NCBI GenBank assembly: GCA_905178155.1
Contig: CAJINV010000021.1
Coordinates: forward strand, 225,760 to 289,759
From: Amoebophrya sp. A120
Taxonomy: Eukaryota; Protista; Dinoflagellata
Length of the DNA stretch: 64,000 bases
Direction of reading: 5' to 3'
Positions 16,101 through 36,249 of the stretch are shown here, piece after piece. The notes beneath the pieces were generated by a model. The model worked only from the letters and a program-made list of their open reading frames with translations. It was not told where the DNA came from and ran no database searches. Every line of letters starts with the position of its first letter. Within the stretch, counting starts at the first letter, position 1. The translations under genes were made by a program, and so were the position numbers.

Positions 16101-18271
16101 AGCTCCGCAGATGAACAAAAGTCGAAGGCTTGGTACTGCAAAACCCCGGGCTGCAACCGCCTTCAGTACAAGGACAGGTATTTCAATCCCGAGTTCACTG
16201 ACCCGCTTTACAAGCAGGACGAAGGGTCGGTGCTGCAGGCTGTGGCTGGAAGTAGTAGAACGTCGGGTGATCATCAGAATGGCCACGGTAGTAGTTGTAC
16301 AAAAATGCAAAGTAGCAGCTCGTCCGCGACAGAAGACGAGAAGGAAAAAGACTACCAGAAATCCCGGCGGTGGTTGGGGTACTGTAGTATGTGCTGGAAC
16401 GAGAAGAGGTTGACGTATTTGCAATACAGCGTCAACTGTGTCGGGGAGCTGCAGAGGTTTCTCGCATCTTCAAATAACGCAGCTTGTAGTTCCTCGTCAG
16501 GAAACGATGAAGAAAAAGACGGCGAAAAAATTCGTGCCCAAATCCTACTCAGGGACGACGATGACTCGTCATCTTCAGACCTGTTCACTGCAAAGCTGGC
16601 TACCTGCACAGACGCGATAGAGTTGCCCAGTGCCGTTTTTCAAAAAGCGAAGGAGCAGACGCAAGGTCAAATGCTTGTTGGTCATCATCTCGAGGACGCG
16701 TCGTCGAAGCAGGATAATTGTAATTTTTATTCTGCCGCCACCGCCTGGACGAAGGAAGACGAGGAGTTTTGGAGCCGGAAAAAAGTGGTTGACGGTAGTG
16801 AAAATAATCTCAAAGGGACGTCTATCCTGAGTAAAAACGTACCCACACCAGAGTCAGGATGGGGAATCTGCTAGACAAATCAGCCAGCTTTGGTTGTTTG
16901 GCATGACAAGTTTGTCCGCGTAGTTCTGGTGTGGGTAATCTGCTAGACAAATCAGCCAGCTTTGGTTGTTTGGCATGACAAGTTTGTCCGCGTAGTGTAG
17001 TGCTGTTTGAGCTAGTTTAGCAGCATTACAGATCTAGTATCTCGTGCTGATTGGAGCATGACAAATTTCAAAACCGCATTAGAAAATGCGGGGCTCCGCA
17101 TGAGAAACATTTTAAGCATGCAGAGTTGCATGACAACTATGGTGTGGGTACGTTTTTACTCAGGATAGCCTCGAGATTTTACGACGACGATGAGGATGAC
17201 GAGGCGAGGTGGAAATTGCCGGTCTTGAAGGAAGAGGATCTTGGATTTTTCTCTAAGTTTTGTCTCTCCTTCAGCGGCAAACTCGAGAACCTGTTCCAGG
17301 AGTCGTACTCATTTACGTCAGGCAAGGACGACAATTCACCTGCAGACGAGGATAAAACTGCAAGCGAGAATAAAGCAAAAATCAACCTGTGGAGTTGCTT
17401 TCGAGACGTGTTCTGGAGCTTCTGCGTGGACCTCCCGGTGACTGGAGCGCTTTTTCTCGCAGGATTACAACTTTTGGGCTTCGTTTGGGTAGCTGGTTTT
17501 GTCGCAGAGAGGGCGTTTGCTTGGATAGTTTCTACGGACAACGACGGAGATGAAGACGCAGAGGCTCCTGCTGGTGTTCAGATAAATCCTGGGAAAATAG
17601 TAAAGCACCGACAAGAATTTCATGAGAAGTACTGGAATTGCGAGTCCTGGATTAAAACGTGCGACTCACTGCTCGCGTCAATTCAAGTCGAGTTTGCGCA
17701 AGCTTGTGCGGCGCTCAACGCTGCTCCTGCTGAAAGCGGTACATCAACTAGGGTTACCAGTGCACCAACGTCCGAAATTTTGAACCAGTTCGTGCACTCT
17801 AACCGAGGGTTCGGAAGCGTCGCGGCTTCTTCATCGTCATTCTGGCGCACGACCAAACACCTACCTGCTCAAGGCAACGCGGAGCGCGCCTCCCGCGATG
17901 GTATATTACTAGCGACCTCGTCCTCCACGTCGAAGAAGCAGACAAGCCAGGAACTTATCGATCCGACAGAAGAACGCACGACGATTACTCCGACAACCTC
18001 AACGGAGAGCAGCAATAAGCGCCCGGTTTTGTTGCAGGAGGACCTGATCCTGGCCCACAGGACCACAGAACAAAAGCAGAAACGCGAGGATCAAGATGGG
18101 TCTAGCAACCTACAGCAAGAGCGTGCAGCTGATCGCCACGGCAGCTCAAGCAGCTCACATGAACAAGATCCGGCGGCATCAATAAACAACTGGTCCAGTT
18201 GTAACTATGTCGATGTAGATCTTGTCAAGAATGGCGATAATTATGCAAAACTCCAGAATTGTGGACAGTGA
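10184..18271 (+). CDS. ANL-superfamily (NRPS-like) adenylation-domain protein with C-terminal TM segments, 6 exons
   Basis: Exons ~10184-10757, 11011-11991, 12277-12315, 12631-15424, 15692-16822, 17173-18271 join in frame. Motifs LMYTGGT, FTWGEKL, GRSDFRVKING, LPRHPVTGKVDRKAL. The 5' end may extend upstream. Confidence 0.8.
10758..11005. mobile_element. TAT...ATA introner, TSD GGCAG/AGCAG
   Basis: IR tatgagagtgcac / gtgcacttccata; removal gives ALA/DFRVDE. Confidence 0.85.
11992..12271. mobile_element. Introner, family-1-related, TSD GGGCA
   Basis: tatcaaatgcaaaaatgtctgggtct... ; gggca on both sides; removal gives DLG/KDNVDLIFTWGEK. Confidence 0.92.
12316..12625. mobile_element. Introner family 2, perfect 20-bp TIR, TSD AAAGC, internal tandem repeats
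   Basis: tatgcactgcaaaagtatcg / cgatacttttgcagtgcata; gaaacagcctagggccaa x3 (12415, 12456, 12494); removal gives GEK/LPDHLAEK. Confidence 0.95.
15425..15686. mobile_element. Introner family 1, inverted orientation, TSD CTGCT
   Basis: Same TIR as 7471; interior matches the reverse complement of the 7471 and 57164 copies; removal gives QAIL/LQLVSP. Confidence 0.95.
16823..17167. mobile_element. Introner family 3, perfect 28-bp TIR, decayed TSD ACGTC/GCCTC
   Basis: tatcctgagtaaaaacgtacccacacca and its reverse complement; removal gives KGT/SRFYDDD. Confidence 0.9.
16865..16996. repeat. 60-bp direct duplication separated by a 12-bp TIR fragment
   Basis: 16865-16924 matches 16937-16996; spacer tctggtgtgggt is the reverse complement of 16841-16852. 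Confidence 0.9.
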
Positions 18272-18970
18272 AGAAGGACAAACACACAGATCCGGTGTGG
18301 TTACAGTAAGGGCTTGGCTATTCCTCTTCTAGTGCAGTAAAGTTCCTGTTGAAAGTTCCTTTCTGTTTTGGATATTGTGTTGTTGGTGAGATATGATCTC
18401 ATGTTCCTGCCACTAGAAGAGACTTGTATGTGTAGAGACAGCATGCATTAGCTGCCTCGAGTCTGGCTACTCCATCTGCAAGATGATTGAAAACTACGCC
18501 AGGTAGAACCAAGGATGACAAACGCTAAAGCGGCCCTCGTACGGTTGGAAACTCCCACGCAGTTTGTTGCGTGCTGATGAAACTCAGTGAAGACCTTGCA
18601 GGCCATGCTTGACAAAGGTACCTTTCCTCTCAGTTGTTGCAGGCAGGTAGTGCTGCTACCTGTGCTCTCTTCGGAGCCCACAGTTAGTAGTGCCCCCTGT
18701 CAGTTGTTGTTTCATTCCATGCTCCACATAAGCGATACGAAGTAGAGGCTGTAAATGATGGAGATCCGCATGTGTGCGAAAAAACAGATCTGCATGAGAA
18801 AAATGATTAGCGTATTTGGTGCACAATCTGGAACTATATCCCCGACACTCGCCTCACAACATACAGTGCCCAGTTTCCAAAAATGCCTTTCGCATGCAGC
18901 TGTAGTTAAAAAGCTATCACCTCCTCGTGTCGTTAGACTCCACCTGCGCTGTAAGTATCGCCCTGGAAAA

Positions 18971-19576
18971 ATGCCCCCAGCCCCGATCCGCACATGCGCG
19001 AAGTGCGCAGAGAAGGAAGCTGATAATCAAGCTCTCCTTCGTGAGCGCTCTGAAAAGAATGAAGAAATCGCGGGATGGGAAAAGCGCTGGAAAAATGACT
19101 CTGTATCCATGGAGAACCAGCAGGAGCTCGCCTCTGTTCGCTTACGCCTGCGTGATGCGATCAAAGGCAAAAACAAAGCCATTATTGAGAAGAATGCCTT
19201 GAAAGAGGAGAAAAAAGAACTAGAAGAAAAGTATGAGGAATTGGAGAAAGAGTGCCAATTAGCTAATGCGCATGCGTTCCTTGGCGCGGAATGTGTGAAA
19301 AAAGCGCTGTGGCTGCGCGGTCAATGTAAGAGACACGAATTTAAGGACCTCTTAATTTGTGATCTCCCGCATAAGAAGACCCCATTCACAAACGAGCACC
19401 TAATCGCACAGATGCTCCCGAGTGATGAAGTTGCTGGCCCCCTGCCAGATCGTGAATCCTTAGAGAAGATGACTGATGCGGTGCTCGACCAGATGTCCGA
19501 TTTTCTCGGTCGCTGGTCGACCGATGAGCACTCGTTAAAAAAGAAGGAAGCCTCTAGCTCTAGTAAGAAGAAATAA
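18971..19576 (+). CDS. Hypothetical coiled-coil protein with N-terminal CxxC (~201 aa)
   Basis: MPPAPIRTCAKCAEKE... followed by E/K-rich heptads; downstream ATG chosen within ORF 18755-19576. Confidence 0.6.
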   Translation: MPPAPIRTCAKCAEKEADNQALLRERSEKNEEIAGWEKRWKNDSVSMENQQELASVRLRLRDAIKGKNKAIIEKNALKEEKKELEEKYEELEKECQLANAHAFLGAECVKKALWLRGQCKRHEFKDLLICDLPHKKTPFTNEHLIAQMLPSDEVAGPLPDRESLEKMTDAVLDQMSDFLGRWSTDEHSLKKKEASSSSKKK

Positions 19577-19850
19577 GAAAACGTTAAGAAGATTCCTGAT
19601 TACATTCGAGAAACATCTATGTCGTCACTAGAGCGAATTGAACTAGCTGCCTTGCACTAGAGCGAGTTGTACTACGTATCTATTTTCTCTTCTATTCATC
19701 ATCACTTATCGAGGGACACGGAGGAGTATCTACGTACCAGTTTTTAAGATGTACACAACTTCACATTTACAAATGCATTTGATAAAAATATAGAGCCAAG
19801 CTATCGTCATCATTCAGAAAACTAGCACCGCCACCCGTCACCTCCACAAG

Positions 19851-20472: not shown

Positions 20473-21071
20473 AGTGAGTGGTGTATCTCCACCTGCTCTC
20501 GAAGACCTTTTTTTTGTCCTCAAGATGAATGAATCATTCCTCAGCTGAAAAGTGCTTCTTTTCATCAGCAGGAATCAAACAATCGAGCACTCCCAGCCCT
20601 GCACTTGTGCAGTATTACCTGTAAACAGCATAGCAGCCAAAGCCATGCTGTTAGCCATCATTGTGTTTGTTCGTTCCTATGACGCAAATTAGCATTGCAA
20701 GCCAGTACAGGATGAAAAACAACATCACGAAAATGTGACAGAGACTGGCATCACAGACTAGCACCAGAGAGCCGTACCATCTACATCACAAAGTAGAATA
20801 TAAATACCTATCTGCAGCATTACAGGTCTACCCGCAACTGCCGAGTGATTACAGAGTGAAGCAGAGAAAAACCACAAGAGAGATAGAGTGTAGAAATCGA
20901 GAATCAGCTGCACGAGGGGAGATGGAAGAAATAGAGAGATACAAACAGATGCGTCTTCCATTTCTTCTTTCCAAAAAACACTGTAGGGCTGAAACTTTTT
21001 CGTGATCATAGACAGAAACCTTGAAAATGAAGTTTTGGTCCTCCGAATAGCTGGATTTCTCCCCAGTGAAG

Positions 21072-24000
21072 ATGACAGGACGTAAAAGCAGTACCGCTGA
21101 GAAGCGGAAATCTGCCGTAAAGGTATGCCCTTTCTCTAATGATTACTTTGGTTTATTGTTTTGATTTTTGCTTCCGACAGTATACAGAAGTTGATGTCTT
21201 ATCACCATGACAAAACCAAATTAGCATAACAAATTCCATATTTGATCATGAGTCCTTGAATTATTATCAGGACGAAGCCCAGCATAAGCCGAGCCCCACG
21301 CCGAAAGCCAAAGCCGCTGTTGCGAAAGCTAGATCGAGGTCAGCATCGAGAGAGAAGGATGAAGGACGTGACACAGACCACGCTATCGACAAGAACGTGA
21401 CGCAGCCCGCGACATCGCCAGAGGACAAGCCCCTGACACAGTCCACGACAGCATCGCAGGTGAAGACCGTGTCGCAGTCCTCGTCCACGACAGAGGTGAA
21501 GAGCGTGTCGCAGTCCTCTACGACACAGGAGATGAAGGGCATGTCGCAGTCCGTGACGCACGACGAGCAACCCGCAGCAAGCAGTGTAGCGACACCCGCC
21601 CGAGCAGCTGGGAGTAGCACAGCTGCAACCATCCCGGCGTCAGCAGCAAAGCCGTCACGTACAGCAGGCGATGAACTGCAACAGGCGGCAAAAGCACCAC
21701 CTCCCGCCCCCTTGCCAGCAAACGGCTCACTTGCACCGCTACAAGTGATGCTTACGCAAGACTCGACCCTCGGCTTCTCCCTGAAGCCGGTGCCGACCAC
21801 CGTGGCGGCGCCACAGCCACAAACGGTGCCATCGATCGATGACAGGCTAGTCATCGACACTGCAGAATTTGGCGAGATGAACACGCTGGTGCAGCAGTTT
21901 GAAGAGGAGGGAGCGCTCGCTCCGCTCCCCCCGGGCGTCTGCGATGACGATGAAGCAGAACCTAGCGTCGTCAACCCCACCACCCCCAAGGTAAGTGATA
22001 TGGTGTTGAGCAGCACCAATAGTAAAGGGGTAAAACTCTTTGACCTGGGACAGGTCAAAAAGGCAAGTTTAGCCTCGGGTGAGCCAGTGGAGAAGAAGCA
22101 AAGGAGAGCTTCCTTTGCAGGAAGCGACCAAGATGTGCAGTCACAGCAGCAGACGAAGGAACCCTCCCCCCTGGACCCGAAGCCGTCAACTAGTTGCATC
22201 GCCTCACACGTCAAGTCGGTAGACGTTGCAGGGCTACGCAGCATCGGTGCTTCTGACGGGGAGATCCAGATGTTCCTCTGTGACACCCACGCTCAAACGC
22301 TGCTCGCCGAGTTCCAGGAAATTGCTGATAAGACAGGATCAGTGCTGTCTGACCAGGCATACCTGGACCTGTTGCCTCCGCCCGGATACATCAGTTCCGG
22401 TAGGCAGGTAAAAGTAGCTTTCGAGTCGGGCCCCACGCGGATAGGAGGTGCAGGTGTGTACGCAAGATTGAGCGACCCCCGCGGGTCACTAGCACCGCTG
22501 TGGGCCGCAGAGCTGGACAACTGTGACTTCTCCTTCAGGCAGACAGCAGCATATTTGTGGAGAATCGCTAACGCAATTGCACACGACCTGGACCAGAAAA
22601 TAGTGCTTGAAAGAAGTACGCAATTCTTGCGCCTCATGGTGTACGACTTGAACATCGCGCCGTGTCCGCAAAAGCCCGTGTCCGCAAAGAAATTGTGGCG
22701 AGAGGAGATCCTCTGCCAATTTGCTGCGAAGGATCCGGTGACGTTCGCGATCTACGTCTTGACCGGCCGGCTATTCGACGTGAACACCTTCACAGCGAAG
22801 TACGGGAAAGAGAAAGCGAAGAGCCAGAAGATAAAGCTGGAGACGCAGCGAGACTTCCGGCTAGGAGTCACAGTCACAAAAGTGGCGACCACGGGCTGCC
22901 AAGACACCGAGAAACTCTCGATCTCCGATGTCGACCGCCTGTGGAGAAAAGACCTCGACGTCAACGGTCAGCTCCTGCCGATTGGAGATGTGGTGAAACA
23001 GTACGTCCTTTCAGGAGCTTTTCTCCGCCGCGCGTGGCCAGTGCTCGTAGCCAGCGACTGGTACAACGTTGCTGCGCTAGCCGAGCTCCTGGGCGAGAAA
23101 CTACACACCATCCTGTATGCGCACCAACTGTCGTTCGAGACGCTAAAATTGTACAACATCCTTCCTGTTTCCGTGGTATCGGAAATATTCGAGCTATCGA
23201 GTATTACGTGGGTCAAGTTGCTGTACCCGCACATGTCCGACCTCGGAATGGTGCCCTTTAATGTGGTGATGGACAAGTTCCCGGTCGTGCATCCGACCGC
23301 GACCAACGTAGCGATGCACATGATCATGTACACCTCGCAGTTTTGGAAGAAAGATGGTGTGCGCATCACGACAGCCAACGCGGTAGAGAAGAGATTCCCG
23401 CACGTCGGTGGCAGCACAGATCCAGCCCGTGTCTGGAATGATCATATTGAGGATATGTTGGTGATGTGCATGAGCAATCACTTCATGGAGGGTCTCAGCC
23501 CGCTCTTGCACTACCAAGACATTCTCCCGCGCGGCCGGCACATGTACCACAAAAATCTGACGTACCAGAATTCCGCTGCAGTGAGCACATATCTGGACCC
23601 TGTCACCCTCCTGCCCACGACCGCACTCGACGACCGCACCACGCGGCCGAACAATAAAGTGTTCAAGAGCATCTGCCAGGAGAATGCGTACTTTGAGTCC
23701 AACCCGCGCTCGCGCACCGAGCACATGTACATGGGCCGGTTCGCCCGGTCGCAGGCCCTGTGTCTCACCATCACCAAGCACATCATCGATGACATCGGAA
23801 ACTGCCACAGCAATGACACCTTCGCGCCGACCACAGCGTCCAGGATGTCAGTGCAGCAGCCTCTTTTGCCTGAGGTGCGAACAAGATCTGCTGTACAAGC
23901 CCCGATGCTTGACGAACAGATAGCGGATGACACGCCGGACGACGCAGCAGAAGCGACGAGAATTCAAGAGCAGTTAGCCGCTGGTGCAATCGATGCTGAT

Positions 24001-26939
24001 ATGCACCTCGAAGAATCGGAAGAGGAGTTTCTCTTTCATGACTCCATCCAGGAGCAAGAGATGTTGCTGTCAGATGCGATGCAAAACAGTCGCAAAGGGG
24101 TGAAACGGAGCAGGCCCGCGAGCTCCGCCCCTGCAGCCGCACCTGCGGCATTCGCGTCGTCCTCGGCATCGTCTTCCTCGTCCGCCCAGCCGAAAATGGA
24201 CCCCTTGGAATTGTTCAAGTCGAAGTGCAATTCGGCATTTGGGAAAGGGAAAGGAATGAAAGGTAAATCCGCAGGCAAGAGCAAAGGGAACTTCCATCAC
24301 ACTCCGACCGGTACAGGCCTGTTCCAGAATGAGATCACCCCCGCTACAGCAGGAGTAGATGACGATGAGGAGTACGAGCCAGAAGCGGAGCCTCCCGCGC
24401 CAACATGGGACTGGCAGAATGCCACGGAAGAGGATCTCTTCCCGGCGGCACAGCGCAAAGGCAAAGGCGGGAAGGCACCGATGGGATCCATGTCGGGCAA
24501 GAAAGGAGCACGGTCGCACCCGTACTCCTCCCCGTCGGCGCCAGCAGCACCGAAACTGCACCCCAGTGTCTGGCACTATGGAATTCCATCCCAGGGTGCG
24601 TGCAACATGCACCCGTCAGCAGCCATGTACCAGCCATACGCGTTTCAAGATCCCTTTGCTCCCCACCACGCCGACAACTTTCACCTGCTGCCACCACCAG
24701 TAGAACCATCCACCGCGAATGCGTATGGTCGGTGCACTCGTCGCGCAGGACGAGTTGCGATCGACGAGTGGGGGTATCCACTTATTGAAGATGCAGAATC
24801 CCCAGCAAACTGGGATTATACATCTTCTATGCATTACAAATTTCCTCCCACTGCTCTTTTCTCCCGAATTATAGTGTTTAGCATAGGATATTCTGGCTAG
24901 GGTGTATTCTTGTTGTCTAGTATTACAACAAGCCTGGTGATGACCATCTTATGATGTAGCCAAGTGCAGACTAGCGCTCGGTGTAGGGCACGCCTAAATT
25001 GTGCCGGCGCGCCTAAATAGTGCCAGTCGGTAGCATGGTGACAGACAGCAGAATTCCCAGGAACTTGATCTGACGCAGGCTATTTTGTATTTTCCATTTG
25101 TGAAGAAATACAAATATTTGCCCGAATCAAGTATTTAGCATACCGTATTCTGGCTAGGGTGGTCTCCACTTCCTCACGTCACCAGAACAGCTGCGTGATG
25201 AGAGCAACCGAAAGGATTTGATCCGTCCTGTGACAGACTAGCGCTCGGTGTAAGGCACGCCTAAATAGTGCCGGCACGCCTAATTAGTGCCAGTTGGTAG
25301 CATGGTAACTGATAGATGGGAACCAAACTCTGACCAAAGCTGGTTTTTGGTCCCCCCTCGTCCGTTGCACAAGCTGCGCTGTAGCGCGCGCACAAGAGAA
25401 TCGCTGCGAGCTCAGAGCCTAAATTTCATGTCGCCATCAGCCTGCAGGCTCGTCTGCAGTGTGGTGTAGCACTAGTTCTCATCATCTCAGCAATTTGTCG
25501 TGCCCACTTCGGGCATCACCTCTATAGGTAGCCAGAATATGTCATGCTAAACACAGAATTAGCAAAAGAAAAGAGCCTCTCCTCCGCCTGCATACCAGTT
25601 GAAGATCAGGAAGCCTTCATCGCCGCCGCCTCGTTCGAGATGTACTGGAGATGCACCGGCACCGCGACAGACGCGCAGACAGTAGTCTTGAACTGTCTCC
25701 TGTTCCGCATTCTGATGCGGATTGTGATGACGAAAATAGGACTAGAGGCCTACGAGATGTACTACTCCGACGAAGAACTAGCAGCATCCACGAAGTCCAT
25801 GTTCTGCACCAACAAAGCCACGCTAGCATATGTAGCCTCTCAGCGAGTCCTAGCCGTCAAGAAGACCATGGCGCAGGCCGCGGTGGTGTTATCGCTGAAC
25901 GGATTTAATCCGAAGAGTTATTCATCCGAAGCCGAGGTAACAGGTGCTGTTAAGGTAATGGCAAAGCCACCCTTTTCCGACACGTCCTTGGTGACCGCCA
26001 TGCTCACCCTGGGAAAGACGATGTTGACAGCAGTCGCGTGGCAATATGCATTGCAAAAGTGTACTGCCTCAGGATTCTTGTCTGCATGCTTGTGATGCTA
26101 ATTTGAATTGTGATTGCACATTTATAATGCTGGGTCAGTACATCTTCACCCAGCATAACGTAGGAGCAGAAACCAAAGTGAACTGCACCTTCCTAGGTCT
26201 TAAAACTGAGACCTGGGCAAAAGTGCAAAAAAGCTGCGAAAAGGTTTTCGACACCCTTGCCCTCAATGAGGGCAAAGAACATGAACTGGAACTGAAAGAA
26301 GCCACCACTATTTCCGATAACCTCTCGTCTACGAAGTTGATTTCCGCCCTCGTCGCGGCCTCCGACGTTTTCCCACAGGACAGCCTCCTTGATCGCCTTG
26401 TGGAGCTCGAAGACAGGTTGAAGAACACGTTCGGAATAGTTACTGCAGTAGAGAAAATGCAGAAGCGGGAATTGATAAAGCACATGTCCATCTACCTCTC
26501 TGGGCTCAAAAAAGCCCTGGTGACGCCTTCGATCGACGACATCGTGGTGTGGCTGAACAGCAGGAGATCGTTGATTCCGTTCGCACAGAAGGCCACGATC
26601 ACCACGAAAGGCAAGAACAAAGGGAAAGGTAAGCAAAAGAAATCGTGGACCGTCACCAAGGACAATGAAAAAGGGAAGACCAAAGGTAAGGGTAAAAACA
26701 AAAAAGGAAAAGGAAAAGGTAAAGGAGGTGCAAATTCCTCTGACTTTGCCTCTATGGTGGATGATTATTCTACGAGAAATGGTTGTACTCGAGTCAGCTT
26801 GCGATTACCTACGCATGACAAATGCTTGTCCTCAGGGAAAGCAGTATGATACTTTCCCTCTCTCCTCGTCAAAATTGCAATGCAACTGGTACTAGCACAG
26901 CATTTCTGCACTTGCATATCAGCGGCGCCGCGACCATAG
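21072..26939 (+). CDS. Large Gag-like/unknown protein (~1564 aa), 5 predicted exons
   Basis: Exons 21072-21122, 21271-24826, 25599-26044, ~26127-26751, 26923-26939 give one open frame with KGKGK-rich patches. Intron 1 is GT-AG; the others are TAT...ATA type. Gag call is positional only. Confidence 0.6.
24859..24899 (+). promoter_or_regulatory. Conserved upstream motif, copy 1
   Basis: ttctcccgaattatagtgtttagcataggatattctggcta. Confidence 0.65.
24899..25086 (+). ncRNA. Box C/D-like RNA 1 with twin GCCTAAATW-loop hairpins
   Basis: 5' hairpin cttgttgt/acaacaag; terminal stem agcctg/caggct; C gtgatga 24937-24943, D' caga 24967, C' tggtga 25036, D ctga 25070; T-rich end. Confidence 0.7.
25118..25156 (+). 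promoter_or_regulatory. Conserved upstream motif, copy 2
   Basis: ttgcccgaatcaagtatttagcataccgtattctggcta. Confidence 0.65.
25156..25348 (+). ncRNA. Box C/D-like RNA 2, paralog of RNA 1
   Basis: Stem cagct/agctg; C 25195-25201, D' 25234, D 25330; core 25234-25309 nearly identical to 24967-25042 but the guide segments differ; T5 end. Confidence 0.7.
25395..25529 (-). ncRNA. Box C/D-like RNA 6, antisense to the host gene
   Basis: On minus: 5' hairpins, stem ttgctg/cagcga, C atgatga (25485-25479), D' caga, C' ctgatgg, D ctga (25415-25412). Confidence 0.65.
25529..25567 (-). promoter_or_regulatory. Conserved upstream motif, minus-strand copy
   Basis: Reverse complement reads ttttgctaattctgtgtttagcatgacatattctggcta(c). 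Confidence 0.6.
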
Positions 26940-26953
26940 CAAAAGTGTTCAAG

Positions 26954-27399
26954 ATGGACAAACAACGGGTGCTCCGCGAATGCGGATGCGTCATGTATGT
27001 CCTCGACAAAAGACGCATCACGGTACCTATTTACTACAGCTTATTTTGTTTTGTAATATTTAACTGTTGCCCGAACTGATGTATTTAGCACACGTCATTC
27101 TGGCTACCTAGACCTGAGCTCTTCGTAAGATATTGCGAAGTTGTGTGGGCGACTGGCCAACGCCGCTAACACAACGGTGGCCAAGTCGTGGTTCAGGAGC
27201 CGGATATGGCCACGACTAACCACCCGCCTTTTCTCCCCATCATTGTACTAAAACAAACTCCCAGGTTGGTGGAAAGCAGTGGTACTGCAAGCACAAGTCC
27301 GGCCACGAAACCGAACACGCAACTGCTGACGCATGGTGCGAGGAGGTGGAAAAGGTTAAGAAAATGCGTAGCTGGGACGAAGAAGAGGAGGATGAGTAA
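26954..27399 (+). CDS. 67-aa Cys/His-containing protein with acidic tail, 2 exons
   Basis: Exons 26954-27022 and 27265-27399; phase-0 GT-AG intron with tactaa branch-like site. MDKQRVLRECGC...WYCKHKSGH...DEEEEDE. Confidence 0.65.
27067..27106 (+). promoter_or_regulatory. Conserved upstream motif, copy 3
   Basis: ttgcccgaactgatgtatttagcacacgtcattctggcta. Confidence 0.65.
27106..27232 (+). ncRNA. Structured RNA 3, class unknown, intronic
   Basis: Hairpins cttcgtaa/ttgcgaag, gttgtg/cacaac, ggtgg/ccacc enclosing agtcgtggt/gccacgact; T4 end. Confidence 0.55.
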
Positions 27400-28100
27400 T
27401 TGACTCATCCTCCTGTGATCAAGTTTTTTCTTGAATCAAAATGAATGAAGAGCCAAGGATGCTCCGAACGTGTGGCTATGACTACACAGAAAATGTACAG
27501 CGTAGTTTTGCTGGAATTGAGACTTCGTATTTTCTCAGTAAATGAACGGAAGAATTGATGTGTTTTTGTTAAAATCAAAACCAATTTGAGAACAAGAACA
27601 CGCTTGCTAGCGTACTCCCGCCAAACCACGCTGCAATCAGCCCTTGTCTCATGGTGTGCAGCATGTGAGCGTGCAAGTAGTCTGCATCACTCGGTCTAGA
27701 GCGAAAAACAGCAACATAGCAATCTGTTGAGAGCATGTGAAGCTAGAACATAGTGCTACCTCACGGAGTAGACACATGCTGAGCGAACAGAGCGTGAGTG
27801 ACAGAGTAAAAAATGTACAGAGCACGCCTTTAAAAAAACTAGTCCTCAAACGCTGTAGGGTCAGAGAGGTTGTTCTTTGTGAGCACAGCAGCACATCACA
27901 AAAATGAAGTAAAGAAGAAGTTGCGTCTAGCACGCCGCCGGAAAAGAGTACCCGCTTTTACTAAAGTCAAGTGTCTTTCTTTGCATCGAAACTTGTGTCA
28001 TGATTGCATTCTTCTGTTGCCGTCGATGCTTGAACGCAATTCCCATCTGAAATTTGAGAATTGCAACACAACCACAGGTACACGCCCGCTTGTCTTGACC

Positions 28101-31100
28101 ATGGCCGCACACCTTGCACGCCACCGAAGGCACGCCCAGCATGACTACTCGCAAGACCTTGTGCAAGTAGTCCGCAATGTACGAAAAGCCTCGTGCAGAG
28201 AAGAAAAGAAAAGGGTAAGCCCCTTTTTCTTTTCATGACTTCTCTGCTGCAATAGAAACTTTCATTCGGCCCGCGATGCGCTAAGGCAGGCAGCCCAGCA
28301 ATAATAGACCAAAAAAGTGTTATTCGGCTTTTTTGCCCGAAGTTGAGTAATTAGCAAAGGTAATCTGGCTACCCTCCTTTTAGCTTCCCCATAGGAGTAA
28401 CAAGCCGCGGTAAGTGGTACAGGGGGACGCCCCTGATCGCTAGTCCTAGCCACTCGATTAGGACAGTGCAGCATGCCGTTACTGAACCAGTGATGATCCG
28501 GGAGGGAACGTACAACCCTTCTGGTGAGCTGACAACATCAGGTCCCTGCCAGTCGCTAACGCCGCAAGGCAACCTCTGCGAACGGCTAGCCCACCCCGCG
28601 CAGCGCGCTCCCCTTTTTTCCGCGCAGCGCTCCCCCCCAAATGAGCTATAAATATCGAAAATGCCACCTTTTTTGCCCGAATCGAGTATTTAACAGACGA
28701 ATTCTGGCTACCCGGTTTTCCGTTTGCTCTACTGGTCAGAAGCCGCGTTGGTGGTATGGGGGGACGCCTCCTTTCGCCTAGCATCGTAGCCTACTCACAC
28801 CAGCAAGATCAGGGTCGCTCCCTGTCCGCCTGGCAGTCCTCGGACACCTTCACGTTGGGCTAGGTCCACCGCGCGCACGGCCCCCGGGTTATTTTGTCTT
28901 CCCCAATCCTCCTCTCTTCCGTGTCAAGTCTGTGCTGGGCTGCCGACCACCTAGCCGTAGCGCTAACTACTAGGACATGCATAACAAAATGCATCACAGA
29001 TACTTACGGAGGTCGCGGAAAGGATGTCCATGGGTGTAGAGGACGTCATCTCCAAGAAAAATCTAGATAGTGTGAGACTGGGCCACGCACAAGACCTAGA
29101 GGTCCAGCCCGCGCATGTGAAGGACTTAAATATTTATTACACAAAGTGTGGTAGCACGGCGCTCACGACAGATGTCAAAGCGCCCGCCCTGCTAGCAAAT
29201 ATTGCAAGAGACTGCGATTTCGCAACGCAGGAGGTACGCGACAGGCTGTTTGGCTTCTATGACAGCGATCAGCTCTGGCACCCGACAGGCCACTTCAGCA
29301 TGGGGATTCCAGTTAGAGGGATAATAGATAAGTACGGCCTCTGGGAAGGCGCAAAAAACCTGTCAGACGACGAAATTCTTAGACTAAATAACTGCCCAGT
29401 CACCCCCGAAGCTAGAGACCTGGCACGAAAAGAATTCTCGACGGTAAGGCGGAAGCCATACCCTTTCGAGACGCCAGAATTGCTGGAAAAAGGGATAGAA
29501 GAGATCAATAGGAATATTTTTGATCCGTCGAAGCCAATAGCGCCAGACAACAGTCCAGTGCTGTGGCCGACGAAGTCGCCAGAAGAAGTAGAAAAAGACC
29601 CGAAGGCCGTGATAATACCGGTCTTCACCCTAGGCCAAAAATTCTGCCCGATAGGGCAATTTTACAAAAAATATCGCATCATAGCAAACGAAAAGCACAT
29701 CAATAACAAAATGTCCGCGATACAGGAACACCTTAGCCTTAGCGACTTCCCGACAATCGTCGATGCAGTGCAGTCTGTGATTGCCCCGGGGTGTGACATC
29801 CCAGTGGTGTTTCTCAAGAACCACCTGTACACGCAAATCCTAGAAAATGCTGACACAGGAGCTTCTTGGGAAGACATAGATAGGATCAAAGGAGGGTGGA
29901 AGCCACCGGATAACTCCGATGGCTTTGTCCCATGCTTGTCGAAACTAGATTTGTACCAAGCGTACTTTCAGCTAGCGAACAATGAAAGTGAAAACTACTA
30001 CATCAGTGTAATACGCCCAGATGGGTCCGTAGAAGTAGTGCGGAATACAGCGCTTACATTTGGCAATTTGCATTCGGTATTCCACTTTGTAGGCAGCTCG
30101 TCCGAGTTGTTACAAAAAGTCTTACGTTTTTACTTAAGAGCCCCCTTCTACGTGTACATCGATGATATTATCAGCATGATGATAGCCGTGCTTGCTGCGC
30201 ACGCACTGTCGTGTGCCAAGCGGATAGTGGCCGCACTAGGCTACGCGCAGAGCGACAGAAAAGATGAGGTAGGTCGCATAGGACAGACTGTAGAAGTGTT
30301 AGGCATTAACTACCGCCCCGAGCAGGAGAGCGCACACTTTGACATGCCCCCAGACAAAGTGGTGTCTGCGCTGGAATTGATAGATGACTTCCTCATCCTT
30401 GTAGCGTGTTGCGCTGTGACGTTAGTCAAAACACAGCGGCTACTAGGCACCCTGATCCACCATCTGTATTTTCGCAAATATGCGGATTGTGGCGCAGCGA
30501 TCTCCTTGATGAACAGGCTCACGTGCCCGCGCGAGCAAGGGCGTATGAACGCGCCCCAGCAAGGAGGCACACGAAAAGCAGCATCGGTGCTGCTTCTGCA
30601 AACCAGAGATGCTATCGAGAAAAACGCCCCCTTTACACTATCAGCAGCTATGGTACATGAGCAGTGCGCTGAACTGTATACAGACGCCGCACAAGACGAC
30701 GATGGGATATGGCTCGGAGGCGTCATACACAGAGACGACTCCGTGCCGTATTACTTTCGACTGTCACACTCGAAGCTAGTAAAAAACTTCGAGCTGCCCA
30801 CACGGCTAAAAAACCGGAAAATATACTTCTATGAGCTTCTTGCAATTTTCGTAGGCCAAGTTCTGTTCGAGCAGATGCTCAAGAACACAGTAGGAATATC
30901 GCATGTAGATAATATAGGGGCAGCCTTCGCAGTCGTGAAAGGAATCGCCCACGACGTACCGGGGGCAGTGATGGCATCCCTGATAACGCGCCGCAGGCGC
31001 GATGATAATAACAAAGCTATCACGCACTACGTGCGCAGCAAGCTAAATCATTCAGACGCAGTCACACGAGATAGACAGCGCGACTTTGAGCTGTTCCTGT

Positions 31101-31222
31101 CGAAGACAGGAGCAGTGCATGTTGATGAAATTCTCCCGGACTGGGCACAAAAACTAGGTGAAGCCCTGCAGTTTGTGTCGTCAGAAATCGAGAAATTTGA
31201 AAAAATTGTGAGCAGTTTGTGA
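28101..31222 (+). CDS. DIRS-type reverse transcriptase-RNase H, 2 exons
   Basis: Exons 28101-28214 and 29000-31222 (phase-0 GT-AG). RT motifs KLDLYQAYFQL, LTFG, YVYIDD, EVLGI; RNase H motifs LYTDAA, ELLAI, VDN, YVRSKLNHSDAVTR. Confidence 0.9.
28333..28371 (+). promoter_or_regulatory. Conserved upstream motif, copy 4
   Basis: ttgcccgaagttgagtaattagcaaaggtaatctggcta. Confidence 0.65.
28371..28619 (+). ncRNA. Structured RNA 4, class unknown, in the RT intron
   Basis: Shares 5' block aagccgcg..gtggta..gggggacgcc..ctag and 3' block ggctag..ccacc..cgcgca with RNA 5; T6 end. Confidence 0.55.
28673..28710 (+). promoter_or_regulatory. Conserved upstream motif, copy 5
   Basis: ttgcccgaatcgagtatttaacagacgaattctggcta. 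Confidence 0.65.
28710..28895 (+). ncRNA. Structured RNA 5, paralog of RNA 4
   Basis: Terminal stem acccgg/ccgggt begins exactly at the end of the motif; conserved blocks as in RNA 4; T4 end. Confidence 0.55.
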
Positions 31223-31881
31223 AAAGATATTCCCTCACCTCAGGTGCAGCGAAGGCCAAAAGCACAAGCAAAAGAGCCCAGGCGCCCGAACTCTCGTGCA
31301 GCGAACCTGTTCAGAGACCCAAAAGTAAAGCTACGAATCGATGAAGAACTTCGTGTGTGGCCAGCTGAGCTTTCGTACGGCTATGACTACGCAAGAAATA
31401 GATCGTGCAGATGGGCAGCGTTCGTAAGCTGGTTTAACGTGAACTACACGAAGAAAATTAGAATACCAAAATATAATGAGCCGCTGGCTACGCTCCAGTG
31501 CCCGGAAATGACGTTCATGTCAGAACTATACGCGTATGGTAAGCACCTGATAGACGTAGAGCAAGGGAATTCGTACCATCTACACATCAGCACAATCGCA
31601 CAAAGGCTAAAGCAGATCAATAAGCTAGAATCCAGGTCCCCGCTCGCCCACGAAAATCAGTGGACATGCTACGCCAGCCTGAATAGACTCAAAGCCCAAG
31701 CAGACCCACAAAAAGCCACCCCCGTCTCTAGGACGCAGATGCAGGGCCTTCGAGCATCAGATCTGATACTAGTAAAATTTTGGATCGCGACAGCATTTCG
31801 CATTAGTAGTTTTGCACCAGTATCAAGCGAGTGCATCTATGACATAGGAGATCAGGATGGAGTTAAGTGGGCAGAGATATN

Positions 31882-31977
31882 TCGCGACAGCATTTCGCAT
31901 TAGTAGTTTTGCACCAGTATCAAGCGAGTGCATCTATGACATAGGAGATCAGGATGGAGTTAAGTGGGCAGAGATAT
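31882..31977. repeat. 96-bp duplication at an N (probable assembly overlap artifact)
   Basis: Matches 31785-31880, separated by a single n at 31881. Confidence 0.85.
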
Positions 31978-32981
31978 CAGGCGGACGGACCGCCGCCGGA
32001 TTTTTCCGCTAAAACGCGGCTGAAAAGATGCTAAAAGAAAAAAAAGCGGCCCCGGGGCCGCGCGCGAGGCGGCGAAGCTTTTCCGGGCTGGTGCCGGCTC
32101 GAAGGGGGCTGCGGCCCCGCCGGTCCGGAGGCGCGCCCCTACCCCGGCCTTTGCTTCCCGGCGGGCCCCCTCGTCGCGCGAGGCCCCTCGGCTTCCCTTT
32201 GGCGGCGTTTTGGCGGCCCCTTCTCTTCCCCGCGTTGCATTTGGCCGGCGCGGCGGCCCGGCTCCCTTGGCGCCCCACATTCTTTCACCGGGGGGTTTGT
32301 TTTGGCAGACCGGCCGGGGGGCCCCCGGAGGTCCGCGGGCCGGACCCGGAAGCCGGGAAAAACCCGGGGAAGCCGACCCGGTAAAACCCCAGAAATGGCC
32401 AAAAAAGGAACGCGCTAAAATTTTTAGCAGACCCCAAAAACCGACGAAAATTGGCAGGGGGGGTACGAAAACCCTCAGGAATGATTAGGAAAAATTTTAG
32501 CACGAAATTAGCAGAGAATTAGCAGACATATTAGCAGACTTTTTAGCATGTTTTCAGCACCAAAACCGGACCCCAAACTTTACAAATTAGCAGAGGTTTA
32601 GCAGACTTTTAGCATATTATTAGCATACTATTAGCATATAATTAGCATGATCCTCGCGGACCGGCAGCCCGGTGAGAATCCAAAGAATGCGCCAGCAGGG
32701 GATCCCGGAAAGCGGGGGGGCGTTTTTGGGGGGTTCGTCCGGTTCTCCTCGGAAAGTTTTTTTGTCCGGCTCCGGGCAAAGGACACTGGCGGCGATTCCA
32801 GCTGCGAGCAGAAGCCTGCCATCAATGCATTCGCCGCGCCCCTTCCTTCGCCGGGGCCCCGGGCCTTCGTATTGTGCCGCCCCCGCAATCGCGGCCCTCC
32901 GGATTTCGCATGGTGCGGATTTTTTTTAGCACTATAACAGCACCAAATTACGAAAAAAGGCCGGCGGCGATCGTCGCCCTG
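31978..32981. mobile_element. 1004-bp non-autonomous hAT-like TIR element, 8-bp TSD AGAGATAT
   Basis: Imperfect TIR caggcggacggaccgccgccgg / ccggcggcgatcgtcgccctg; TSD at 31970-31977 and 32982-32989; central cluster of ttagca repeats. Confidence 0.85.
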
Positions 32982-34423
32982 AGAGATATTTACAGATCAT
33001 GTAAAATTCAACCCACTACCAGGCGAACTGTTTTCTGTCTTAGTCCCGCACCGATGCGTAACAGTCCCAAGTAGCTGCTCCACAGATGCACGGCAAGCGT
33101 ACTACAATGAGTTAGTACAGGGCAAGTTGAAAAGCACGCCGCACTGCTGTCGCAGGACAGCAGCACTAGCACTCAGGCTGCAACTAGCATCCTTGAACCT
33201 AGGTGGTGTGTATGCAATACCCGAGTTCAATATGAACAGGATAGCGGACCACTTTGGGTGGACCCGCAAGACAGCAAGAAGAAACTTCCTGCGCTACACT
33301 AAAGATTACAAGATGCATGTTAAAAGTGAATTTTTCTTCCCGAAAGAGACCACAAACTGGATTCTTGAGGGCCTGTTTGTAGTAGACTCAGACTGGCTCG
33401 GCTTTGATGCGGCAACCGCCATGCACTACCAAGCCGCAGCAGGAAAAGACATTGCACTTGTGTACAATGCAGAACAACAGATGCTACAGGTGCAGCGTCA
33501 GCTAGTGTTTCTCAATCAATTTCAGTAAAGTAAAAATCCCATGCCTGGCCAGAAGGCCCACTGTGCGCACCATCGTGCGCTCTCTCAAGGGTGTTCATCC
33601 CAGACCTGTGAAGCACTATTGGCAAGCTAGATCTTGGATGCCCACTGGGTCGTACTGTAGACATGATCACTACCAGTTAGTTTCATGTAGTAGTGCTCAT
33701 TTCGTACTGTGAAGATCTATCGTGATCGTGCTACGCAGTTCTGGCCCAATGCTGTTGGGATGTTGGTCGCGTTGTGCGTGCCCGCAACGCTCCAGTTGCA
33801 TCCTCGAATGAGATTTGGTCTGTGTGAATATCGGATCCTCTCACTGTTTGTCCACGCTGAGATGTATAATAATTCTGCTTTACCCACCACCACGGCCACA
33901 AGCTCCTAGTGTGATTCAGAACAAATCTTGCGAAAAAAATTATTGATACATCGTATGAAGTTACCCAGAAAAAAACAAGATCTGTTTCTGTGTACTGAAT
34001 CACACCGCGGCGCTGGTGTTATAATCGTATCGTAAAAATAAAGAAGAATTATCCTGCTGAACTCACCCCGAAAATCTTGAACTTGAAATTTTTTTGCCCA
34101 GTCTTGGTCCATAACGCATTCCTGTTATTGACTCCACAATTTTCATCTTCACGTCCAGCTTTTTGGAACGAAGAACAAACGGTTCCTGATCAACGTCGAA
34201 CAAAAAGCCTTGCACGACACCATATCCACCATTGCAGCGAAGAACCTTCACAAATCTAAAGAACTGAAAAAACCCTTTAGATTTCGTGTGTCAGCAACCA
34301 CAGCAAGCTTTGTCAAAACTACACTTTTTGATAAAGCCATTTTCGACGTCCAAGAAGCATAATTCAACTTGCAAGAATATTTTATCGATAATTTCAGATC
34401 TGTGAAACATCTGAAATTTCAAA

Positions 34424-36249
34424 ATGGCGGACGCAACGGCTGATCAGGAGAAGTACACAGAGGTTCTGAACGAGCTGATTCCCTACATTTCCGAGTTTGT
34501 GGACGGAAATGGGGGGTTGGCTTCGCTTTCCCTTTTGTCCCAGGACCCGCACGTCAAGTCCCTGCAGGCGATGATCCCGGCGCGGTACGACAAGAAGCTG
34601 ACGAAGATTTTGGAGCAGTACAAGGACTTTTTCCAGTGCCTGGAGGGCGGGCGCGTGGCCACCTACAAGGCCTACGAATCGGGGTTGATCGACGAGGAGG
34701 GCCGGGTGAAAAACGTGTCTGCGAAAGCGAAGACCAAGATGAAGCAGGTGGTCACCATTCTGCCGGTGGGCGAGGAGGCCCCCCCGGCGGAGGCCGCGGC
34801 CCCGGCCTTTTCGCCGCCGGAACCCGCGGCCGCTCCGGAAGCGTCGCTCAGTGGCAACGAGGGCGGCGCACCCACGGGCGGCCCCGTGGAACACGCGTTT
34901 GACCCCACGGACGACAACTTGACGGATGAGATGGTATTATTGAACCATGCACGAATATCCTAGCAAGCGGGTTTCGCAATTTCAATATGGGCATTGTGTG
35001 AGAAGTCTACGTGAGCTGCGTGCCCAACGCTGTATGCAAAACATGATTTTTTTAATTGTCTTCCTCGTTGTCCTTGGTGAGAAGAAAGGGGTTGTTAAAA
35101 CAGAAATGGATGTCCTGTTCTACTTCCAAAAAAAAACCAAAACAGGGCCATGAAGTGACACTAATGGATTTGATGGACCAGCTGGGCGCGGCTGTTTTTT
35201 TGGAGGACGGGTCCCAGTTTGTTCAGCTCATTCAGAAGATGCGCCGAATCCGCAAGGAGACATTTGGTATTTCTATTTTTTTGAAACTGATGATAAAACA
35301 TAAAATTCTTCGGGTTTTTGCTTCGTTCTCCTGATGCATTTGCATATGCATGACGGGAAGTCGATATTCATGAAGCAGTATGAGAAATGAAAAGGTTGAT
35401 TTGGATCTCCACCAGGTTTCGACGATGACTCCGTGTTCGCCCGCGTGTTTGGTCCCACCCGGCCCAACGCGAACCGCATGGTGGTCACGGGTGGCAGCGC
35501 CGTCCCCGGTCAGGTGAACTCCCTGAAACGCCAGGCGCAGGCCTACGACCCAAATGGCCCGCGCATGACCGTGCCTTCCAGCGTGGAGCTCGCGGCCCCG
35601 CGCAACCCGGCCGAACGGAACGAGCGACTGACTTTGGTGACGCGAGAGATGGTGAACCGCTTGCGCGAGGCACCGGGAAAGATGCTCACGGTGATTGAGC
35701 TCACACAAATCCCGAAGATCCAGTTGTTGAAGAAAGGTATTAGTTGTATGCCAGAGTTAGAGCTGCAGAAGTACGTTCATTCTCCACATTTTCAGTGTTT
35801 ATTCCGTCGCGCTTTGATGATGATGCAATTAGGTACGTCACATCTGCTTTGCATGATAAGGTATTAAAATTCGTTTACAACTAGTGTAGTACGTCTAGTG
35901 CACTTTCTTGATGAAGCGCAGCCGGGAGGACCACTTCATCTCCACGACTCTGTCAGGTATCATTTCGAAATTCACGCTGTTCCTGAACCAGAACCAGGAT
36001 AAGTTCCAACTCGCGAGAAACCCGGAGGGCGAGAACAAATCGGATGTGGTCACGTTGATTATGGACGAGGTTGCGGTGGACGAACTGCTGACGGGCACGT
36101 TTGACCTGGACAACCAGTACACGGATATGTTCCCGGAACTCTCACTCGCCGGGCCGAACGCGCCGGGCACCGGGCTGGCGAAGAAGTTCCAGAAGAAGGG
36201 TACTGGAAAAAAGGGCGGAAAGGGCTACGGCTACGGTGGGTATTACTAG
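34424..36249 (+). CDS. Hypothetical protein, possibly two LOTUS/winged-helix-like repeats, 4 exons
   Basis: Exons 34424-34933, 35146-35266, 35416-35736, 35957-36249 with phase-matched GT-AG introns and strong GC3 bias. Domain call is tentative. Confidence 0.75.

Follow-up and report, generated by a model that had tools for sequence, protein, structure and literature searches.

Six predicted small-RNA units behind a promoter-like motif in the predicted introns of a tyrosine-recombinase retrotransposon of Amoebophrya

Results

The stretch of Amoebophrya sp. A120 DNA analysed here (the window, 64,000 nucleotides) carries a gene for a reverse transcriptase (RT) with RNase H and a gene for a tyrosine recombinase (YR), together with two ends formed by repeats A and B, whose joints are present in contigs. 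Within these ends lie six copies of a motif, each at a fixed distance from the predicted start of a small-RNA unit, and three of the units have C, D′, C′ and D boxes (Table 1). An initial annotation had placed a retroelement at 21072..33528; the element proved real, but contig joints set wider limits for it, 18247-33878 (15.6 kb).

Table 1. Features of the element and its insertion site (positions in the window)
Feature	Position	Strand	Remarks
Interrupted host ORF	17051..18246	+	break near 3′ end
Terminal repeat A (A1)	18247..18373	+	left element end; contig joints, depth
ORF0	18755..19576	+	273 aa, CxxC and coiled-coil stretch; within element
ORF1 (Gag position)	21072..27399	+	six predicted exons: 21072-21122, 21271-24727, 25599-25954, about 26154-26718, 26901-27022, 27265-27399
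Promoter-like motif 1	24862..24899	+	
Unit u1	24932..25088	+	box C/D-like: C-guide-D′-long hairpin-C′-guide-D, 5-bp terminal stem, T run
Promoter-like motif 2	25120..25156	+	
Unit u2	25188..25346	+	box C/D-like
Unit u6	25393..25497	-	compact box C/D-like, no T4 run
Promoter-like motif 6	25529..25565	-	without upstream GCCCGAA block
Promoter-like motif 3	27069..27106	+	
Unit u3	27140..27234	+	two adjacent hairpins, T4 run
pol gene	28101..31222	+	predicted: exon 28101-28214, intron 28215-28999, exon 29000-31222
Promoter-like motif 4	28335..28371	+	
Unit u4	28404..28619	+	multi-hairpin, closed by 5′-3′ stems
Promoter-like motif 5	28675..28710	+	also in estuary run X3
Unit u5	28742..28897	+	shorter u4 relative, interior different
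Tyrosine recombinase gene	31244..33528	+	after predicted acceptor 31243; halves to 31880/31977 and from 32982
Assembly gap	31881..31977		one N, with 96-bp artefact duplication of 31785-31880
Insertion	31978..32981		1004 nt, non-coding, hAT-like by its marks
Terminal repeat B	33647..33878	+	contig joints, depth

The end of repeat A was located by a contig that runs from 33878 straight into 18247-18266, and the A-to-B joint (18373 to 33647) is likewise present in contigs. Joints in both directions and, in run X1, a higher depth over A and B (123 at position 18318 in repeat A versus 39.5 in the element interior) give split direct repeats, A1...B1A2B2, an arrangement pieced together from contig joints and not from one continuous sequence. 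Most likely, B1-A2-spacer-B2 was collapsed to a single B in the assembled window. At the B-A junction a 7-bp inverted repeat flanks an 8-nt spacer in a lox-like manner, and a 10-nt core, with one difference, is common to the element junction and the site in the host ORF. When this ORF was joined to position 33879 onward, it continued for ten further codons and then met a stop. Self-BLAST of 18000-35000 revealed neither inverted terminal repeats nor an internal complementary region. A collinear paralogue of the element is present in the same DNA run (X1), and estuary run X3, from another study, contains pieces of the element, including 28646-28836 with the u5 promoter and the 5′ half of u5.

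ORF0 had no Pfam or PHROG family above cut-off. For ORF1, all nine of the donor/acceptor combinations tried left one frame open over 1561-1609 aa, the introns being GT-AG, and what had been taken for a separate 67-aa gene is instead likely its tail, as it joins in frame as the last two exons. The tail is Cys/His-rich, and the K/G-rich part is similar to that of relatives. Calling ORF1 Gag-like agrees with its position, but a profile of three relatives scored it no better than 20 shuffles; comparison with the atlas gave scores of only 0.81.

The assignment of an RT-RNase H gene was borne out by a complete set of catalytic motifs, YIDD in the RT and YTDAA, YELLA, HVDN and NHSDA, in this order, in RNase H. 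The RT had 121 relatives at E ≤ 0.001, with RVT_1 (E ≤ 0.01) in 16 of the 20 scanned; the pol ORF of the window itself gave no direct Pfam match. RT_RNaseH was matched weakly in two of six relatives, and there were atlas clusters with RT_RNaseH. No Dam methyltransferase match was found in pol or in six relatives, and pol stops about 55 aa past the last RNase H motif. No match to solved structures was obtained for the RT by sequence, viral contigs held no RT relative, and word-based protein searches returned nothing for the RT, nor for the YR alignment among longer proteins. The closest relatives are Amoebophrya elements, at least nine of them in another Amoebophrya strain. As a lead only, the atlas neighbours of the RT include Euglenozoa clusters.

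The YR gene also held up. It has the R, HxxR, H/W and Y motifs. Its two halves match the relatives' profile (E 1e-17 and 3e-12), and they can be aligned to the L004 family at R, HxxR, W and Y. A model of the L004 recombinase (pLDDT 80) matches Cre (E 5e-6); the YR half from the window, modelled by itself, came out poorly and had Cre as weak top matches, and YR had no Pfam match. The reading frame of the window copy is broken by the 1004-nt insertion beside the assembly gap. This insertion ends in imperfect inverted repeats and is flanked by an 8-bp target duplication, and DNA contigs contain a form of the element free of it (joint 31969 to 32982, depth 44.3); in view of the inverted ends, the duplication and the block-free form, an intron was rejected as a reading of the 1-kb block.

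The label DIRS-type is thus true at the level of the order but not in the strict sense, given the direct repeats and the missing methyltransferase: by this architecture the element is of the Ngaro/PAT/VIPER type. Those elements (order DIRS) likewise have ORF1, RT-RNase H and YR in this order and make no target duplication. Split direct repeats, A1-[ORFs]-B1A2B2, are described for Ngaro-, PAT- and VIPER-like elements (PMC8547959, PMC6681497), and Ngaro and VIPER are reported to be free of a methyltransferase (PMC3266345). Compared with them, the present element adds at least seven predicted spliceosomal introns, ORF0 and six promoter-led small-RNA units, and is about 15 kb long, whereas Ngaro of Cafeteria is about 6 kb. 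The word 'intron' was absent from the YR retrotransposon surveys searched. Retrotransposons that keep spliceosomal introns are reported among Penelope-like elements (PMC4209133); these, however, differ in RT class and in nuclease, and their RNA cargo consists of hammerhead ribozymes, not of separate small-RNA genes.

Two of the three introns drawn in the initial annotation, 27023-27264 and 28215-28999, have GT-AG borders and leave the frames open, but the donor of the third, 24827, is wrong: the sequence there starts CTATGC, without a GT or GC donor, and the in-phase GT donors nearby are at 24728 and 24740. Relative L001 has introns at matching places, namely before the RT, between RNase H and YR, and inside YR. 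In RNA-guess contigs from runs X8 and X9 (one sample) a host intron is spliced at depth 66-197. Inside the element, three contigs among those listed have depth 2-3, and an RNA-guess contig of depth 2 continues unspliced through the acceptor at 25598. Spliced RNA was seen in X8/X9 for none of the element introns; no contig, a form of data from which level or absence is not readable, lay over a unit or joined a predicted exon pair. For 21000-30999, no RNA data set was listed as containing the sequence. Raw RNA runs X5-X7 were uninformative, with 0 reads over 19000-36500 and likewise 0 on the host genes there.

We confirmed six clear copies of a motif of about 40 bp (TCTGGCTA; copies 37-40 bp), all in predicted introns and none elsewhere in the window. 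They are at 24892, 25149, 27099, 28364 and 28703 on the plus strand and at 25536 on the minus strand; the pairing of motif and unit stood, with the correction that one copy and its unit are on the strand opposite to the other five. A two-block matrix, built from the six copies that it scores, gave them 32.6-36.7, versus 12.2 for the next site and a maximum of 18.4 in ten shuffles, and the core pattern had five matches versus 0 in each of 100 shuffles. The spacer is variable and the six bodies behind the motif are different. The distance from the motif to the RNA start, as predicted from sequence, is 31-33 nt in 6/6, and a run of at least four T is present in five units, so that the T-rich ends first described hold for all except u6. 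An upstream element at a fixed distance and a T-run terminator are the marks of a type 3 promoter, and the motif is most likely such an snRNA-type promoter rather than a part of the RNAs. Under this reading the units are likely independent genes set in introns. That they are RNAs processed from introns was rejected, as one unit is antisense and all have an upstream motif.

The motif recurs on further contigs, at least three, from the same DNA run. Scanning for it turned up 0 matches in metagenome and viral contigs, and none in six related loci, RT relatives on metagenome contigs that each include at most 1115 nt before the RT match. The collinear paralogue (run X1) showed no motif piece at 90% likeness, and the motif is absent from the L001 pre-RT intron, which is about 100 nt long.

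The units, announced as structured and 125-250 nt long, measure 95-216 nt as delimited, and folding above shuffles was seen in only two of the six (z was -2.2 for u3, with -2.0 in a second run, -1.9 for u4 and +1.3, worse than shuffles, for u5). An 82-nt D′-hairpin-C′ core is common to u1 and u2 at 90%, with both guides different (repeat family D12); u4 and u5 have the same 5′ end, first hairpin and closing stems around a changed interior. RTGATGA occurs in three of the six units at offsets 37, 38 and 43, for which chance is about 2e-6 in a 15-nt slot picked post hoc. With C and D near the ends, internal D′ and C′ and a terminal stem, u1, u2 and u6 show the full two-guide box C/D layout, and we judge them from it to be probably real C/D RNAs. 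The remaining three are hairpin RNAs without a class. Rfam gave 0 families at cut-off in the whole window and three weak matches in 24700-29100; u6 weakly matched a C/D family (18.9 bits versus a cut-off of 44, E 2.1). The window has no tRNA, and no pairing among units was found beyond the u1/u2 paralogues. A telomerase RNA was tried and rejected: only 6 nt of telomere-like template were found, by eye, against what we took to be the telomere repeat.

Three guides pair with the sense strand of repeat A over 9-10 bp that include G-U pairs, at predicted sites near 18297, 18315 and 18341. Two of the three duplexes start away from the box, and for each taken singly 128 kb contain 7-8 equally good sites; three of the six guides have no good site in repeat A, and a first self-target scan, scored by best match length only, gave no excess over shuffles. 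What stands out is the convergence of three matches on one short repeat. In a pairing test devised post hoc, once the matches were known, the stretch over repeat A took first place, alone or shared, among 996 non-overlapping windows in all four scoring schemes, and the score of A itself was reached by 0-3 other windows. The best-three-guides score was equalled by 0/6298 other windows and 5/3000 shuffled guide sets with the window letter at 18318, and by 5/6298 and 12/3000 with the run X1 letter. We consider it possible, somewhat short of probable, that repeat A is the target of the C/D guides.

Discussion

The results make a mobile element carrying independently promoted small-RNA genes a highly probable reading of the locus. 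Opinion is evenly poised on the fuller one: a YR retrotransposon with six intron-placed small-RNA genes, their own snRNA-type promoters and three guides on the element's own repeat A. Of the two possibilities raised in the initial annotation, a mobile YR element with unspliced copying and partly guide-like small-RNA cargo fits, whereas domestication found no support.

In the life cycle that we propose, polymerase II would produce a full-length RNA, part of which would be spliced into ORF1, pol and YR messages while part would be left unspliced as the template of reverse transcription, as in retroviruses. With an unspliced template, introns and cargo would both be retained. The cDNA would become a circle, whose B-A junction the Cre-like recombinase would join to a host site where the core matches, leaving no target duplication. 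The promoter motif would act by recruiting SNAPc of the host and, in view of the T-run ends, most likely polymerase III. Host fibrillarin may be loaded by u1, u2 and u6, which would place 2′-O-methyl marks on repeat A at G51 (u6 D′), U69 (u1 D′) and A95 (u1 D). Repeat A is expected at the ends of the genomic RNA, where such marks might protect the RNA from silencing or steer how the ends are handled during reverse transcription; like viral polymerase III RNAs, u3, u4 and u5 could bind proteins or serve as decoys. That the retrotransposon's own box C/D guides steer host fibrillarin to methylate its terminal-repeat RNA, as a self-mark against silencing or to control reverse transcription, with three further structured RNAs alongside, is a tentative and rather doubtful proposal.

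It is unlikely that the units are host snRNA-type genes (snoRNA, scaRNA, others) captured with their promoters by this single lineage of the element, passengers whose action, if any, would be on host RNAs, for instance U2. Capture would agree with the motif copies on other contigs of the genome, with relatives that so far have no units, and with U2 snRNA (a fetched locus), on which both u1 guides fit neighbouring sites (16-23 and 26-32), the second aiming at A30, a conserved methylated site; jointly, 8/3000 shuffles do as well. The duplexes are, however, only 7-8 bp, singly equalled by 21/200 and 34/200 shuffles, and the first aims at U18, not the known Gm19. SCARNA9 (mgU2-19/30), a box C/D scaRNA, likewise has two guides, and u1 pairs weakly with U2 near 18 and 30. 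The long hairpin between D′ and C′ in the u1 layout is also reminiscent of scaRNAs; u1 differs from SCARNA9 in its short duplexes, in having no Rfam match and in being transposon-borne. We also rejected rRNA guides: none of the guides rose above chance on conserved rRNA of 30 foreign eukaryotic rDNA loci. The best case came from u2 D′ with large-subunit RNA (10 loci); it was equalled by 4/100 shuffles, with six guides tried; a 14-nt rRNA match of u1 occurs in only 1/27 loci, and no guide duplex of at least 10 nt beside D or D′ was found on the 30 foreign rDNA loci or five foreign snRNAs. Moreover, three introns holding six distinct RNA genes, one scaffold among them duplicated and given new guides, would ask much of chance capture.

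Improbable, to a greater degree, is that the element encodes these RNAs against its host or competing elements (rRNA, mRNA, RNAi proteins), the pairing with A being a relic or chance. EBV v-snoRNA1, adenovirus VA RNA and retroviral polymerase III cassettes are viral precedents, u3-u5 are hairpin-rich with no match longer than 8 nt to the element ends, and RNAi, described as repressing DIRS-1, would favour such cargo. Against this, no host target emerged, and no rRNA or snRNA site family passed chance on the foreign rDNA loci and snRNAs. We find it very improbable that small repeated insertions left the motif and units behind as untranscribed relics, or that they are internal signals, with accidental boxes and pairings: the genome is rich in such insertions, the expression data do not cover the units, and 4/6 units fold no better than shuffles, but six different bodies stand at a fixed distance behind one motif, three have complete C/D′/C′/D sets with terminal stems, and u4 and u5 kept their closing stems while the interior changed. 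A domesticated, immobile host RT/YR cluster working with small RNAs, for which the many predicted introns, the occurrence in a wild sample of another study and the failure to see an empty insertion site in DNA might speak, is barely credible beside split direct repeats at sharp ends, insertion into a host ORF tail, a junction of recombinase type, a collinear paralogue in the same run, the many relatives and a tolerated YR-disrupting insertion; the locus is probably not domesticated but a mobile YR retrotransposon.

Viruses are already known for small-RNA gene cassettes. Bovine leukemia virus (BLV) and foamy virus are reported to carry polymerase III pre-miRNA cassettes, separately transcribed from the integrated copy (PMC4378190). 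They too are reverse-transcribing carriers with separate small-RNA genes, and make miRNAs, BLV via internal type II promoters; here, in contrast, a protist retrotransposon is the carrier, the promoter would lie upstream, and box C/D-like RNAs make up three of the units. EBV v-snoRNA1 and the HSURs of herpesvirus saimiri are described as a parasite-encoded box C/D guide and a set of snRNA-like genes, working through host RNP machinery (PMC13597479, PMC4378190). Their carriers are DNA viruses, and v-snoRNA1 is excised from an intron and acts in methylation of host rRNA, whereas the best-supported target here is the element's own repeat. A literature search, with most subscription papers outside it, returned no retrotransposon with box C/D guides or an snRNA-type gene set.

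Should the units be real, the element shows that a retrotransposon is able to keep numerous introns as room for cargo. Should the guides act on repeat A, they would name positions for testing end protection and copying in YR elements with split repeats; for DIRS-1, even the primer is reported as unknown (PMC7192593). The motif, finally, is a candidate snRNA promoter of this parasite lineage, and a genome-wide scan with it could recover RNAs reported missing there, such as U1 (PMC7789003).

Coding capacity, introns and mobility

The initial annotation described a DIRS-type element. A YR retrotransposon is present, but its direct repeats are split, and the assignment to DIRS in the strict sense failed. 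The RT ORF had no direct match in Pfam; its relatives at E≤0.001 number 121. Of ten whose source was checked, nine come from Amoebophrya sp. AT5.2, and RVT_1 was found in 16 of the 20 scanned. The host is thus most probably an Amoebophrya-like dinoflagellate parasite. After RT, pol has RNase H motifs and ends without a methyltransferase. The two halves of the YR gene match C-terminal parts of RT relatives in profile comparison. Between them lies a 1004-nt block that has imperfect terminal inverted repeats and an 8-bp target duplication; the form without the block is present in the DNA run X1, from which the window may derive and which does not count as independent. A structural model of the intronless relative in locus L004, made from an alignment that included the two window halves, matches Cre.

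Two of the three introns originally proposed are GT-AG with open frames, whereas the third has no donor at its proposed start, for which 24728 is a better position, as tabulated. The separate 67-aa gene dissolves with one more intron into the tail of a six-exon ORF1, predicted at 1561–1609 aa in all nine splice combinations tried; ORF1 stands in place of the supposed Gag-like gene, but its likeness to Gag could not be shown. These models are predictions: no RNA contig joins any pair of the element's exons, and the one RNA-guess contig that crosses the acceptor at 25598 unspliced may be DNA. ORF0 has no family match, and further small exons are possible in 19576–21072.

Introns have been reported in a few fungal YR elements, but our literature search found no such report. 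Nothing further on introns in YR elements appears in the available parts of PMC5718144, PMC9940879 and PMC3266345. In the related locus L001, GT-AG introns interrupt YR and also lie ahead of RT and in the stretch from RNase H to YR, so introns are a family trait. Because introns are lost from spliced templates in DIRS-1 assays (PMC7192593, in part), replication of the element would require an unspliced RNA template; intron retention is known in Penelope elements (excerpt of PMC4209133).

One X1 contig continues from 33878 into letters found at 18247–18266, and another connects 18373 with 33647 across a stretch whose letters are unseen. These joints give the order A1 ... B1 A2 B2, known in Ngaro, PAT and VIPER elements (passages in PMC8547959, PMC6681497 and PMC3783388). 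X1 depth, which does not equal copy number, is 123 and 118 at the two repeat stretches versus 39.5–44 inside and 26–28 in the flanks; the right end was likely collapsed by assembly. At the B–A junction a 7-bp inverted repeat flanks 8 nt, a layout as in recombinase sites, and a 10-nt core is common to the junction and the host site. When the element is removed in silico, the host ORF extends ten codons to a stop; an empty site was absent among the X1 joints listed. X1 also has a collinear paralogue on a separate contig, and in the estuary run X3, from a different study, there are six near-identical pieces of the element plus one host piece at depth 2–3, one element piece spanning the promoter and 5′ half of u5 (u1–u6 being the predicted small-RNA units). 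The alternative originally offered, a domesticated RT/YR locus, is disfavoured: ends and joints, host-ORF interruption, paralogue, family introns and estuary pieces together favour a mobile element.

Over 18344–31880, the window and the X1 contig differ by 28–29 single letters. Other runs agree with X1 where they cover a site (20994 in X3, 25692 in the RNA-guess run X9), which makes base errors in the window likely. A 29-nt stretch just past the YR stop is 83% alike (E 0.17) to 4485–4513 of L004, a distant relative, and is possibly a conserved 3′ signal; in L004 and in L005, another related locus, a 551-nt tandem direct repeat lies beyond it.

Features of the element and its surroundings (window positions)
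Feature	Position	Remark
Tandem array	1–600	18-nt units
Inverted-repeat family	7470–7955, 11990–12270, 15425–15690, 56811–57430	200–500 nt, terminal inverted repeats; several within long ORFs; MITE- or introner-like
Host gene, AMP-binding domain	11007–12071	Pfam
Inverted-repeat element	16822–17168	very high copy number; first bin summed depth near 40,000 in X1
Element	18247–33878	YR retrotransposon
Repeat A	18247–18373	
ORF0	18755–19576 (+)	273 aa
Intron, first placement	24827–25598	non-donor start
Intron, better placement	24728–25598	
Intron	27023–27264	GT-AG
Intron	28215–28999	GT-AG
29-nt stretch	33534–33562	after YR stop
Repeat B	33647–33878	
Host gene, P-type ATPase domain	60531–63023	Pfam

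Most other long ORFs of the window had no Pfam match.

Motif and small-RNA units

All six motif copies originally reported are present, all inside the element; one of them is on the minus strand and the other five are on the plus strand. With a matrix derived from them, the copies score 32.6–36.7, against 12.2 for the next site in 64 kb and a maximum of 18.4 on ten shuffles; the core pattern has five matches in the window versus none in 100 shuffles. An unconserved spacer follows each copy, with the predicted unit start 31–33 nt downstream. Three or four kinds of body are represented, five of six end in T runs, and one is antisense to the pre-mRNA. These features match the anatomy of type 3 promoter genes (as outlined in part of PMC8287931).

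Boxes C, D′, C′ and D with a terminal stem occur in u1, u2 and u6, D′ being CAGA in all three; the C box lies at offsets 37–43 in three of the six units (chance ~2e-6). An 82-nt D′-hairpin-C′ core is common to u1 and u2, and both their guides differ. The proposed kept scaffold with varied guides thus holds between these two, a comparison within one element only. u4 and u5 agree at the 5′ end, in the first hairpin and in the closing stems and differ in their interiors, and u3 consists of two hairpins; only u3 and u4, among the six, fold better than shuffles. No unit reached an Rfam family, and no transcripts of u1–u6 were seen.

Three or more further X1 contigs (depths 20, 25.3 and 32.7) carry motif-like pieces, one contig having two copies; a scan of metagenome and viral contigs gave no match. 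Look-alikes of 24829–24846 and 26045–26062 lie 25 letters apart on another X1 contig and resemble a word of a high-copy repeat family. The collinear paralogue has no motif piece at 90% likeness. Six related loci lack the motif, with no more than 1115 nt ahead of the RT match in any of them, and in L001 the intron preceding RT is short and carries no cargo; the small-RNA cargo may therefore be special to this subfamily of element.

The element can be likened, through its predicted units, to the small-RNA cassettes that bovine leukemia virus and foamy viruses carry (PMC4378190, in part) and, as a guide-RNA carrier, to EBV v-snoRNA1 (extract of PMC13597479). A literature search at listing level found no retrotransposon whose cargo is snoRNA-like or driven by snRNA promoters, and the main text of PMC7789003 mentions neither DIRS nor snoRNA.

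Candidate guide targets

The rRNA comparison used 30 eukaryotic rDNA loci that contaminate prokaryote assemblies; 10 include most of 18S, and 7 extend at least 3 kb past it. With six guides counted, none fitted rRNA better than chance. Eukaryotic 18S ends occur in at least 53 prokaryote contigs, and one bacterial genome entry, L060 (G004:C10), includes eukaryotic contigs with a U5, U1, U4, U2, U6 tandem cluster in several repeats. Among five snRNAs from one locus, U2 pairs with both u1 guides over 7–8 bp; one guide points at A30, a conserved methylated site (section of PMC7960923), and the joint fit was equalled by 8 of 3000 shuffles.

Pairing with repeat A is a stronger target signal than the U2 or rRNA fits. 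The u6 D′, u1 D′ and u1 D guides pair with its sense strand over 9–10 bp within 56 nt, and the search window over repeat A ranks first or tied first of 996 under four scoring schemes. None of 6298 other windows and 5 of 3000 sets of shuffled guides reached its three-guide score; if 18318 takes the X1 letter, probably the true one, the numbers are 5 of 6298 and 12 of 3000. Since six repeat stretches were candidates and the test was designed post hoc, p is roughly 0.01–0.02, and we treat the targeting as a lead. Each match is ordinary alone, two do not start at the box, and repeat A offers no site for three of the guides. Judged from these pairings, it is conceivable, if rather doubtful, that the element's guides target its own repeat A. 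In repeat B, the region of 33673 has an off-register fit of the u6 D guide, and 8 nt in the u1 D guide are the complement of the final 8 nt of B, where the crossover lies.

Proposed mechanism

The genes, ends, motif and boxes are observed in the sequence; the splicing, transcription, methylation and purpose in the cycle proposed here we infer. Full-length RNA would either be spliced into protein-coding messages or stay intact to serve as template, and cDNA circles would integrate via the B–A junction. From the integrated copy, the six units would be transcribed separately; three of them would act as structured RNAs, and the other three would direct methylation by host fibrillarin, with repeat A as the most likely target.
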